DNA from: a virus
Reading direction: 5' to 3' (one strand)
DNA length: 64,000 bases
Virus record (IMG/VR): IMGVR_UViG_3300025684_000011
Shown here: one piece after another, positions 24,011-26,630 of the stretch
Position numbering within the stretch: position 1 is the stretch's first letter
How the letters are laid out: each line of letters begins with the position of its first letter
Notes under the pieces: model-generated
The model's database searches: none
What the model was told of the DNA's origin: nothing
What the model saw: only the letters and a program-made list of their open reading frames with translations
Program-made: the position numbers and the translations under genes

Positions 24011-24949
24011 ATGACACAGAAAATTAGATGGGTTCTAGCACATGAGCCAATTGAATTATTTCTAAGAGCGGCAAAAGTTTTCGCATCAGAAGTTAATGCA
24101 AAAGCAGAAGGCGCACTAGATATTGAAGTTATGACAATGAGTGAGTATTCTGCAAAGTATAATAACGGTGTTGTTGTTACTAAGCACGAACTTGTTGATA
24201 TGATTAACAGAGGCGACATTGAAATGTCCCAAACATACACAGTAGACATTGGCGAATATGATCACGAATTCCGTGCATTAGATATGCCATTCCTATTTGA
24301 GTCACACGACCACGCAACTAAGGTGTTCGAAGGCCCAATCGGTCAGTCACTACTAGACGGATTAACAGAATCAGCTGGTGTTAAAGGTTTAGCCTTTACA
24401 TACTCCGGTGGATATAGAATTATTCCTGGACAAGAAGGAATTGATACTATTGAAGATATTAGAGGTCTAAAACTTCGTACTTCATTCTCACCTGTTGCTA
24501 TTGAGACTTTCAAAGCAGTTGGTGCAGACGTAGTTCCTATGGAACTTGAAGAAATGACAGACGCAATCCAAGACAAAGATATTCAAGTAGGTGAGTCTAC
24601 TTACCCACGTATCTATGCATTAGGACAAGACAGAGTTTCTAAGGTTATTAACCACACAGAACACTCATTGTTCTTAACAAGCATCCTAATCAACCAAGAC
24701 TTCTTTGCAACTCTTGGTGAAGAACTACAAGGTATTGTTGTAGACGCCGCTAAAACAGCCGCTAATTACGAACGTGTAATCAGCATTGAAGACGTTGCAC
24801 TTACACAAGCTAAAGCTGAAAGCGATGGCATTGAAGTTCGTAGAATGTCAACAGAAGAAAAAGCTCGTTTCAAAGCCGCTACTGCTCATGTTTATGACAT
24901 GTTCCCAGAGTTAGCTGGAACAGTTAAGAAGATCCAAGATACAAAATAA
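24011..24949 (+). CDS. dctP: orphan TRAP DctP-type binding protein lacking signal peptide
   Basis: DMPFLF, GYRII, GLKLRT, GADVVPM, HTEH; N-terminus MTQKIRWVLAHEP has no signal sequence. Confidence 0.85.
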   Translation: MTQKIRWVLAHEPIELFLRAAKVFASEVNAKAEGALDIEVMTMSEYSAKYNNGVVVTKHELVDMINRGDIEMSQTYTVDIGEYDHEFRALDMPFLFESHDHATKVFEGPIGQSLLDGLTESAGVKGLAFTYSGGYRIIPGQEGIDTIEDIRGLKLRTSFSPVAIETFKAVGADVVPMELEEMTDAIQDKDIQVGESTYPRIYALGQDRVSKVINHTEHSLFLTSILINQDFFATLGEELQGIVVDAAKTAANYERVISIEDVALTQAKAESDGIEVRRMSTEEKARFKAATAHVYDMFPELAGTVKKIQDTK

Positions 24950-25096: not shown

Positions 25097-26182
25097 ATGC
25101 CGGCAAGAAATCATAGAAATTGGTTAAAGAAACCATTAGTAGAATATGTTAGTAGCGAAATATATTCAAGTCAAGAAATATTTGAAGAAGAAATCGAAAG
25201 TATTTTCTCAAAGGTGTGGGTACCAGTATGTCACATCAGTGAAATGTATAATAAATTAGATTATCGAACATCTCAGATAGCAGGCATTAATATTTTAGTT
25301 TACAATACCGGAGATGGCGTTAAAGCATATCGTAATTATGGCAGTTGGGCACCTACTGGAACATTGCAAGCACCTATTGTAACAGTTGAACCACAACTAC
25401 ACAGCGAAGTAAAGCACGGAGGTATGGTATGGGTAACACTTGATCCTAATCCTACACAGAGTGTTGAAGAGTGGACAGCAGGTGCATTTGATTGCATTGC
25501 TGATGCTATTGACACAGAAGAACTAGAAATTTTTCATTATCATAAAGCAATTATTCCTACCAACTACAAACTATGGCATGATACTAACAGTGAATTCTAT
25601 CATGACTTCATGCATTACTTTAATCGTGTAACTGGTTTCAACGATGAGTATTTTGCTAGAAAGAATATTCCCTTTGATAACGGGCATGTGAACGTTAGTA
25701 GTTTTACTGTAAATTATACAGAGTTTGATAAAGAAGGCGATAGAGGTGAACTAAGTTTTCCTAACTTACCTCCAAACCAATGGTATATGGTAGACTTGTT
25801 TCCTGGCTTTAACTTTAATTTACGTGGTAGTGCATATCGTTCAGATAGTGTTACGCCACTTGGACCAAATAGTGTACTAATAGAGTTTAGAGGATACGGT
25901 TTAAAGAAAGATACTCCAGAAGAAAGACAAACTCGTATTAAACATCATAATACTATCTGGGGACCGTTTGGCAGAAACTTACATGAAGATCTTTTAGGTG
26001 TAACCGGGCAAGGAGCATCAATGTCTCCAGGCACAGAGAAAAGAAATATTTTACATGGAAGACATGAAAATAGTACTATACATGATGAAGTTGGTATGCG
26101 TCACTACTATGCAGAATGGGGAAAATATATGGAGTTAGATCCTAGTAATCCAATAAAAGAGGTTGACAAAAAGGCCGCATAG
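25097..26182 (+). CDS. ring-hydroxylating oxygenase alpha-like protein lacking Rieske ligands
   Basis: IYSS..IFEEE...IF..VW, NYKL, EFYH...H, LFP, ED catalytic-domain motifs; no CxH...CxxH. Confidence 0.8.
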   Translation: MPARNHRNWLKKPLVEYVSSEIYSSQEIFEEEIESIFSKVWVPVCHISEMYNKLDYRTSQIAGINILVYNTGDGVKAYRNYGSWAPTGTLQAPIVTVEPQLHSEVKHGGMVWVTLDPNPTQSVEEWTAGAFDCIADAIDTEELEIFHYHKAIIPTNYKLWHDTNSEFYHDFMHYFNRVTGFNDEYFARKNIPFDNGHVNVSSFTVNYTEFDKEGDRGELSFPNLPPNQWYMVDLFPGFNFNLRGSAYRSDSVTPLGPNSVLIEFRGYGLKKDTPEERQTRIKHHNTIWGPFGRNLHEDLLGVTGQGASMSPGTEKRNILHGRHENSTIHDEVGMRHYYAEWGKYMELDPSNPIKEVDKKAA

Positions 26183-26193
26183 TGTTATAAATA
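26163..26193 (+). promoter_or_regulatory. tmRNA promoter (sigma70 plus overlapping TATAAATA)
   Basis: TTGACA-17-TATAAA; the -10 is also a perfect T4-type TATAAATA. Confidence 0.75.
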
Positions 26194-26197
26194 TAAT

Positions 26198-26630
26198 ACA
26201 ATGGTGAAGCATAACAAACGTTGTACAGGACTCGGGGGCAGTACCCGACGCCTCCACCATAAACACACGAACGAGGAATGGAACTATAAACAGTTTTAAA
26301 GATAAGTGTAGAATATTTTATATCGTTAAAGGTCATCTTAACGTATCTACACAAACAATAGAAGATTGTTACGATTATTATTTTAGAAGAATGTGGAATA
26401 ATAACGAGTGTTACATATACGAAGAAGGTTTTGAAGAATCGTATCGTGTTTTTATGATGGGGGCGAAATAGGATCGACTGGCAAGTAGTAGGAATGTGGA
26501 GTTGTCCGGATGTAAGCTCGGTTAACGCGAACAAAACGATAATTGCAAACGATAATTTTGCATCTGAGGATTTTGCCCTAGCGGCTTAGTTACTCTGGGC
26601 GGGTACTGCCTGGAAACAGAAGTGCCACTT
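26198..26630 (+). ncRNA. ssrA: circularly permuted two-piece tmRNA, alphaproteobacterial type
   Basis: T-arm with GGCAGTA loop and CGCCTCC-ACCA (26249-26259) lies upstream of the 5' acceptor strand GGGGGCGAAATAGGATCGAC (26459); G3:U pair; tag ANDNFASEDFALAA* at 26545-26589; outer ends approximate. Confidence 0.92.
26286..26471 (+). CDS. putative 61 aa protein in the tmRNA intervening segment (ATA start or degenerate)
   Basis: Stop-free frame (I/M)NSFKDKCRIFYIVKGHLN...YFRRMWNNNECYIYEEGFEESY...K*; GAGGA 8 nt upstream of ATA; no ATG at that position. Confidence 0.45.
   Translation: MNSFKDKCRIFYIVKGHLNVSTQTIEDCYDYYFRRMWNNNECYIYEEGFEESYRVFMMGAK

Follow-up and report, generated by a model that had tools for sequence, protein, structure and literature searches.

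A probable passenger gene in the spacer of a permuted two-piece tmRNA gene from a marine T4-like myophage

Among marine T4-like myophages, two-piece tmRNA genes have been described in the OM43 phage Melnitz and in pelagimyophages (PMC9004378). The locus reported here lies in a 64,000-nucleotide stretch of viral DNA (IMG/VR record IMGVR_UViG_3300025684_000011), hereafter the window, and resembles these genes as an alpha-proteobacterial-type permuted ssrA of a large marine myophage that sits beside tRNA genes and behind a promoter (PMC9004378). It departs from them in its spacer, since the Melnitz paper describes no spacer reading frame, and in lacking at E ≤ 1 in Rfam the glutamine riboswitch that the Melnitz ssrA has in its 3′ part (PMC9004378). 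Two-piece tmRNA genes of Alphaproteobacteria such as Caulobacter share with the window the order of acceptor piece, spacer and coding piece, the G3-U70 pair, an encoded CCA and a tag ending in Ala-Leu-Ala-Ala, and their transcripts are believed to be matured by RNase P and tRNA 3′-end enzymes (PMC3985003). Unlike the spacer in the window, those of cellular alphaproteobacterial genes are short and non-coding.

Protein genes that lie within a tmRNA gene and are missing from its mature product, as we propose for the window, are found in some of the group I introns of the tmRNA T-loop, which can carry homing-endonuclease genes (PMC11915505). Those introns self-splice and ligate (PMC11915505), whereas the ends in the window would stay open through tRNA-type processing; the insert here also lies between the CCA and G1 instead of the T-loop, its cargo is not a nuclease, and no Rfam intron family matched at the gathering threshold or at E ≤ 1. 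Foreign cargo in the same spacer has been noted as a tRNA-Ala gene, termed 'a unique feature', and a repeat element, the only inserts of intervening sequences mentioned in the 2025 tmRNA database paper (PMC11915505). Those inserts consist of an RNA gene or a repeat, whereas the cargo in the window is a putatively translated gene. Our literature search, with three older tmRNA papers outside its reach, found no paper describing a protein gene in a tmRNA spacer. SgrS/SgrT and RNAIII/hld similarly combine a functional RNA and a small-protein message in one transcript; in contrast to these, the two functions in the window occupy separable segments, and maturing one would destroy the other.

Rfam models resolved window positions 26197–26629 as a complete alpha-type permuted two-piece tmRNA gene, with 105.9 bits for RF04321 (26197–26589, cut-off 47, model positions 1–213 covered) and 101.3 bits for RF01849 (26159–26629, cut-off 50, model positions 1–355 covered). 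ARAGORN, unlike Rfam, called no tmRNA in the window. The gene is circularly permuted: the acceptor piece, with its encoded CCA, precedes the coding piece and pairs with it through a 7-bp acceptor stem. The stem includes the G3-U70 pair, and T-G at stem position 3 was invariant in 85/85 related spacer-bearing genes. The promoter-like site ahead of the gene overlaps, through its second hexamer, a T4-late-like TATAAATA (26188–26195), and was absent from our consensus scan list because the scan demands T at the last position of that hexamer. The scan found no terminator-like site downstream of the tmRNA. The parts of the gene are as follows.

26165–26195, plus strand: promoter-like site read from the sequence (TTGACA 26165–26170, 17-nt spacer, TATAAA 26188–26193)
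26197–26259, plus strand: tmRNA acceptor piece, comprising the 3′ half of the tRNA-like domain, the T-arm and CCA 26257–26259 (RF04321 and RF01849 alignments)
26260–26458, plus strand: intervening segment (spacer) of 199 nt and 28.6% GC, predicted to be lost from the mature two-piece tmRNA (Rfam alignments, relatives)
26459–26629, plus strand: tmRNA coding piece, comprising the 5′ half of the tRNA-like domain, the pseudoknot region, the tag frame and the 3′ tail (Rfam alignments)
26545–26589, plus strand: tag reading frame of 14 codons, the first GCA and the last encoding Ala-Leu-Ala-Ala, followed by TAG (read from the sequence; fits the RF01849 consensus tag region)

One frame is free of stops from 26208 to 26471 (87 codons). 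An initial annotation, made from the letters alone, had described an excised segment of about 200 nt at 26260–26458, a 61-codon frame inside it preceded by GAGGA, and a stop within the 5′ end of the mature tmRNA. All three agree with our results: 199 nt separate CCA 26257–26259 from G26459, the frame runs from ATA 26286 to TAG 26469–26471 with GAGGA 8 nt before the ATA, and the TAG occupies mature positions 11–13. The last four codons and the stop are supplied by the closing stem together with mature nucleotides 1–13 of the coding piece. A frame open across the entire 28.6%-GC segment arose in 0.5% of 5000 dinucleotide-preserving shuffles (p = 0.005). The window frame has no ATG, GTG or TTG ahead of the Met codon at 26391, and no Shine-Dalgarno (SD)-like site precedes that codon in the sequence. 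The opposite strand also holds a stop-free frame of 147 codons (26142–26585, minus strand) that spans the whole tmRNA; it was rejected as a gene, having 98 codons in a 98%-identical variant and 51–69 in other relatives. The features of the spacer frame are listed here.

26286–26471, plus strand: cargo gene of 61 codons plus TAG with a putative AUA start (homologues, dN/dS, alignments)
26273–26277, plus strand: Shine-Dalgarno-like GAGGA, 8 nt 5′ of ATA 26286 (sequence)
26278–26289, plus strand: out-of-frame mini-ORF of ATG, two sense codons and TAA, whose stop overlaps ATA 26286 as ATAA (sequence)
26391–26393, plus strand: first canonical start (ATG) in the frame, with a product of just the 26 C-terminal residues (sequence)

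A search of viral contigs with the conserved sequence that begins the coding piece yielded 120 tmRNA loci, two of which (L069 and L004) encode clear ATG-started relatives of the window peptide in their spacers. A profile built from these three sequences recovered relatives at no fewer than 83 viral loci and, in a separate protein search, in 63 protein clusters with E-values down to 1e-31. The initial annotation had asked whether homologues exist, whether they start at ATG and whether they always lie within ssrA. Homologous peptides are many and have ATG where the window has ATA, while confinement to ssrA does not hold: most relatives are free-standing, with their own ATG, their own TAA and no tmRNA landmarks nearby. 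Spacer-embedded relatives with an ATG start also occurred at L163, L129, L132, L174, L184, L190 and L199.

The family core of ~60 residues consists of a Val-Lys-Gly block, a Tyr..Arg.Trp motif and a Gly-Phe-Glu-Glu block, all present in the window's protein. Across 45 sequences including the window, K15, G16, Y32, R35, W37 and F49 were invariant and V14, E41, E46, G48, E50 and E51 were at least 90% conserved. The family's canonical start is missing from the window clade, which has ATA or ATT instead of ATG. The C-terminal tail varies freely, and in spacer copies it is whatever the closing stem and the first tmRNA nucleotides encode. AlphaFold predicted three helices for the window's protein (mean pLDDT 83.7). 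Searches with this protein found no Pfam match at E ≤ 1, nothing better than E > 3 with Foldseek against PDB and BFVD, Z ≤ 3.2 with VIA-align, and nothing specific in the ESM atlas by shape or the protein atlas by features; the best PHROG match (E = 2e-4 across 19 residues) was to a family of unknown function, and tblastn of a family member against isolate phages gave no match. The profile matches place the cargo in a widespread, uncharacterised family of marine-phage small proteins. Among database gene calls, P0002, P0004 and P0009 carry false N-terminal extensions into the acceptor piece, and P0010 is a variant in which the frame continues into the mature tmRNA in the sole frame without a built-in stop.

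The protein-core tree, a short alignment with limited resolution, contains at least three switches between in-spacer and free-standing copies. A cluster of 14 rows that includes spacer copies holds four free-standing ones, three of which adjoin a tmRNA, either directly upstream of it (L145) or 1.2 kb downstream (L134 and L140). The L145 copy (L145:1492-1683), which has an ATG and a TAA of its own, stops ~40 nt short of a tmRNA promoter; the tmRNA in question, at 1730–2024, has a non-coding 64-nt spacer. Tight linkage of free-standing members to a tmRNA was only partial, with a tmRNA within 1.5 kb in 3/20 sampled loci and anywhere on 2/10 of the longer contigs, all of which are fragments.

The frame in the window clade evolves as a coding sequence. 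A dN/dS comparison, which the initial annotation had proposed as a check, gave 0.12–0.30 in 9/10 window-clade pairs and 0.68 in the tenth, which points to purifying selection. The same annotation held that a lack of homologues together with frameshifts or stops in related segments would speak against the frame; homologues exist, and the sole indel is in-frame, 3 nt long (one codon). Variable sites numbered 16, 10 and 28 at the three codon positions (p = 0.009). For the part before the internal Met, pN/pS was 0.22–0.40 in 5/6 pairs of subclade representatives and 1.71 in one pair; the codon-position test on this N-terminal part, with few sites, returned p = 0.17. The Val-Lys-Gly block differs in the clade by one Arg-to-Lys change and otherwise encodes the same protein via different codons. 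Synonymous divergence within the clade reaches about 0.9–1.0 with the frame intact. These patterns of substitution mark the spacer frame as a real gene under purifying selection.

The window clade comprises 11 distinct sequences drawn from IMG/VR, ENA, Tara and JGI samples (independent metagenomes), none of which has a canonical start before codon 36. The start position, aligned to the ATG of the sister clade L340–L342 and other relatives, is ATA in 8/11 and ATT in 3/11, and all 11 have an SD-like GAGGA, AAGGA or GGAG 4–9 nt 5′ of it. One subclade (L125, L127, L128, L334 and L336–339) has a TAA that shuts the frame six codons upstream, leaving the ATA as the sole near-cognate start there. AUA is a very poor bacterial start codon. 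The AUU of infC offers a precedent for a conserved start other than AUG, GUG or UUG behind a normal Shine-Dalgarno sequence, with weak and tunable initiation of the kind we propose here; natural bacterial starts at AUA are rarer still, and its use in the window is argued from conservation only. With moderate confidence, we infer initiation at AUA/AUU for the window clade. A caveat is the 98%-identical variant L205–207, where an in-frame ATG takes the place of the window's ACG 26271–26273, five codons ahead of the ATA, and given this variant the start codon may be in flux and not fixed at AUA. The out-of-frame mini-ORF may permit termination-reinitiation at the ATA; ATG mini-ORFs ending on or near the ATA were present in 4/7 sequences (window, L127, L128 and L124) and absent in L125 and L208, and are not conserved.

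Two relatives share synteny with the window to either side of the tmRNA and have empty spacers of 29 nt.

L011:1721-2023: tmRNA gene with empty spacer
L052:6799-7101: tmRNA gene with empty spacer

Their mature tmRNAs are 97% (L011) and 95% (L052) identical to that of the window. The coding pieces are 100% and 96.7% identical, respectively, over 181 nt, while the acceptor pieces are just 86–87% identical. A near-identical tmRNA with an empty spacer has no need of the insert, and the comparison therefore identifies the spacer gene as dispensable cargo that is no part of tmRNA function. So abrupt a change in identity from one side of the spacer to the other suggests that recombination took place in or close to the conserved stem arms.

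Other phage tmRNA genes carry cargo in their spacers as well. Spacers on viral contigs had a median length of 86 nt and reached at least 100 nt in 46/106 cases, compared to a median of 34.5 nt and 2/116 for cellular spacers from alphaproteobacterial genomes with the same 20-mer. Where the spacer was at least 100 nt long, the longest sense ORF covered a median of 0.81 of it, versus 0.49 for antisense and 0.46 for shuffles. At least two other, unrelated families of spacer ORFs are under strong purifying selection (dN/dS 0.02–0.3). On one contig that also encodes a free-standing member of the window's family, the tmRNA spacer contains another, Cys-rich ORF. This 62-residue ORF (L202, G006:C1:4680-5076, minus strand) has a hydrophobic N-terminus, occupies a 205-nt spacer and ends at the TGA immediately before G1, and the free-standing member lies 45 kb away. 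The longest spacer in the sample (L016, 499 nt) holds a 120-codon ORF with hydrophobic stretches, probably behind a second short ORF. A tRNA suspected by eye in the L091 spacer was confirmed by neither ARAGORN nor Rfam.

The spacer is closed by a long helix that continues the acceptor stem, as the initial annotation had described. Beyond the 7 bp of the acceptor stem (26249–26255 with 26459–26465), pairing extends over ~19 more positions (26256–26274 with 26439–26458) with two mismatches. The strands are as follows.

26249–26274, plus strand: 5′ strand of the closing helix, comprising acceptor stem 26249–26255, ACCA 26256–26259 and the spacer extension (MFE fold, RNAalifold)
26439–26465, plus strand: 3′ strand of the closing helix, comprising spacer end 26439–26458 and mature G1–G7 26459–26465 (MFE fold, relatives)

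Positions 26250–26475 fold with an MFE of -59.2 kcal/mol (z = -5.5), and 0/200 shuffles folded equally well. RNAalifold on 11 relatives showed compensatory changes in the closing stem. In a survey of 85 distinct spacers, each 60 nt or longer, positions 5–14 past the acceptor stem were paired in 85–99% of spacers with 2–6 pair types each, and shifted controls were mostly paired in 6–58%, except at A/T-rich positions close to the acceptor stem. Pairing across the 85 spacers above the shifted controls therefore marks the long stem as a general precursor helix of these tmRNA genes, with or without cargo, and not as specific to the ORF. In the spacer ORF, the 3′ strand of the helix encodes the C-terminal tail. 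A conserved structured RNA in the spacer interior was rejected, with RNAalifold retaining just the closing stem and two weak hairpins.

We propose, with a rough probability of 0.75, that the tmRNA spacer holds a real passenger gene for a protein of ~61 residues that is co-transcribed with the tmRNA and starts at AUA. The passenger-gene reading had been one of three offered by the initial annotation, and it gains support from the many homologues, their ATG starts, purifying selection and the near-identical tmRNA without an insert. The gene would have no promoter of its own and would be transcribed within the tmRNA precursor. Ribosomes would load at GAGGA 26273–26277 before the 3′ strand of the stem is made, start at the near-cognate AUA 26286 with low output, read through the 3′ strand and 10 nt of mature tmRNA, and stop at UAG 26469–26471. 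The helix would then re-form, and RNase P at 26458/26459 together with 3′ trimming at CCA 26259 would release the two tmRNA pieces, a processing that would destroy the message. Since cleavage at 26458/26459 removes the stop, the complete and normally terminated protein would come only from the unprocessed precursor. The stem-closed loop would be an exchangeable slot for cargo, with the conserved stem arms probably serving as homology for its gain, loss or swap.

The initial annotation had also raised the possibility of autoregulation through a non-stop mRNA, in which the stop is purposely placed in the mature tmRNA and the RNase P cut leaves a message whose product is tagged and degraded, coupling protein yield to the rate of processing or of trans-translation. 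The geometry stands, as codon 26457–26459 spans the cleavage site, the TAG lies at mature positions 11–13, and the same TAG ends many spacer ORFs across several families. A selected design is unlikely. Because the tmRNA and its leader always supply the +13 TAG and the -1 TGA, an ORF in two of the three frames must terminate at one or the other, and where a spacer ORF stops follows from its reading frame: at +13, at -1 or at its own stop at -7 to -16, in roughly equal numbers. Even within the window's family both the +13 TAG and, in L163 and L174, the -1 TGA are used, while free-standing members end at their own TAA with unrelated tails, and near-identical tmRNAs occur without cargo. A related and similarly doubtful idea ties the cargo protein functionally to its tmRNA, as a sensor of tmRNA maturation or trans-translation capacity during infection. 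The family gene recurs inside, directly upstream of, or 1–2 kb from phage tmRNA genes. If the protein were such a sensor, only the unprocessed precursor would give its complete form, a cleaved message would give a product tagged by the same tmRNA, and the conserved AUA/AUU start would tie output to initiation-factor status.

Three further alternatives concern the frame itself. A decaying insertion, also suggested at the outset, would be a relic whose ATG was lost in the clade ancestor and which has not yet eroded, the spacer now being merely a long loop. The missing canonical start before codon 36 in 11/11 sequences, the tolerated loss in close relatives with a 29-nt spacer, and the single high values of dN/dS (0.68) and N-terminal pN/pS (1.71) are what a relic would show. 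A pseudogene is nonetheless improbable at a synonymous divergence of ~0.9–1.0, over which the frame has stayed intact with indels in-frame, the Val-Lys-Gly block has been kept by different codons apart from its one Arg-to-Lys change, and every member retains the SD-like site and ATA/ATT at the ancestral start. It is equally hard to credit that translation starts at ATG 26391 and yields the 26 C-terminal residues only, the frame ahead of it being open for other reasons. That ATG is the first canonical start in the frame, but it has no SD-like site before it, and the short product would lose the most conserved block of the family, with V14, K15 and G16 invariant or nearly so in 45 sequences; in the upstream part, moreover, changes favour the third codon position and pN/pS is low for most pairs. 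A non-coding structured spacer, with the open frame as a chance effect of base composition, is very improbable despite the stable fold (z = -5.5) and the open antisense frame, because the fold energy comes from the closing stem with no conserved pairs in the interior, protein-level homologues stand free elsewhere, the shuffles gave p = 0.005 and relatives do not keep the antisense frame.

tmRNA genes are usually taken to specify nothing but RNA, and the permuted form to have a throwaway spacer. In this phage and in many of its relatives, that spacer appears to serve as a functional site for small protein genes that rely on the promoter of the tmRNA, such that one transcript would be both messenger and stable-RNA precursor. 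Annotation pipelines will miss such genes or extend their N-termini falsely into the acceptor piece. Translation and RNA maturation would compete on a single molecule, which makes the locus a natural system to study that competition. If the clade does start at AUA/AUU throughout, behind a normal ribosome-binding site, it would offer a rare phage example of near-cognate initiation in nature. The presence or absence of the insert beside a 100%-identical coding piece would illustrate cleanly how cassettes are exchanged at an RNA hairpin.

The window comes from a large marine T4-like myophage, with an NrdA 68–69% identical to those of cyanomyophages and Pelagibacter phage Mosig. A 244-kb metagenome contig carries the same tmRNA region at 100%. 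The only blastn match among isolate phages was a 72% match of the coding piece to Rhodobacter phage RcSimone-Hastad (MW677525.1 32180–32332, minus strand), a region with no annotated feature that probably encodes a phage tmRNA overlooked in annotation. Immediately 5′ of its tmRNA, the window contains genes for a DctP-type solute-binding protein (24011–24949; Pfam PF03480, 2e-51) and a protein like the alpha subunit of ring-hydroxylating oxygenases (25097–26182; PF00848, 28.5 bits, cut-off 24.9), both candidate auxiliary metabolic genes. The latter, which precedes the tmRNA in the window, is absent from L011.
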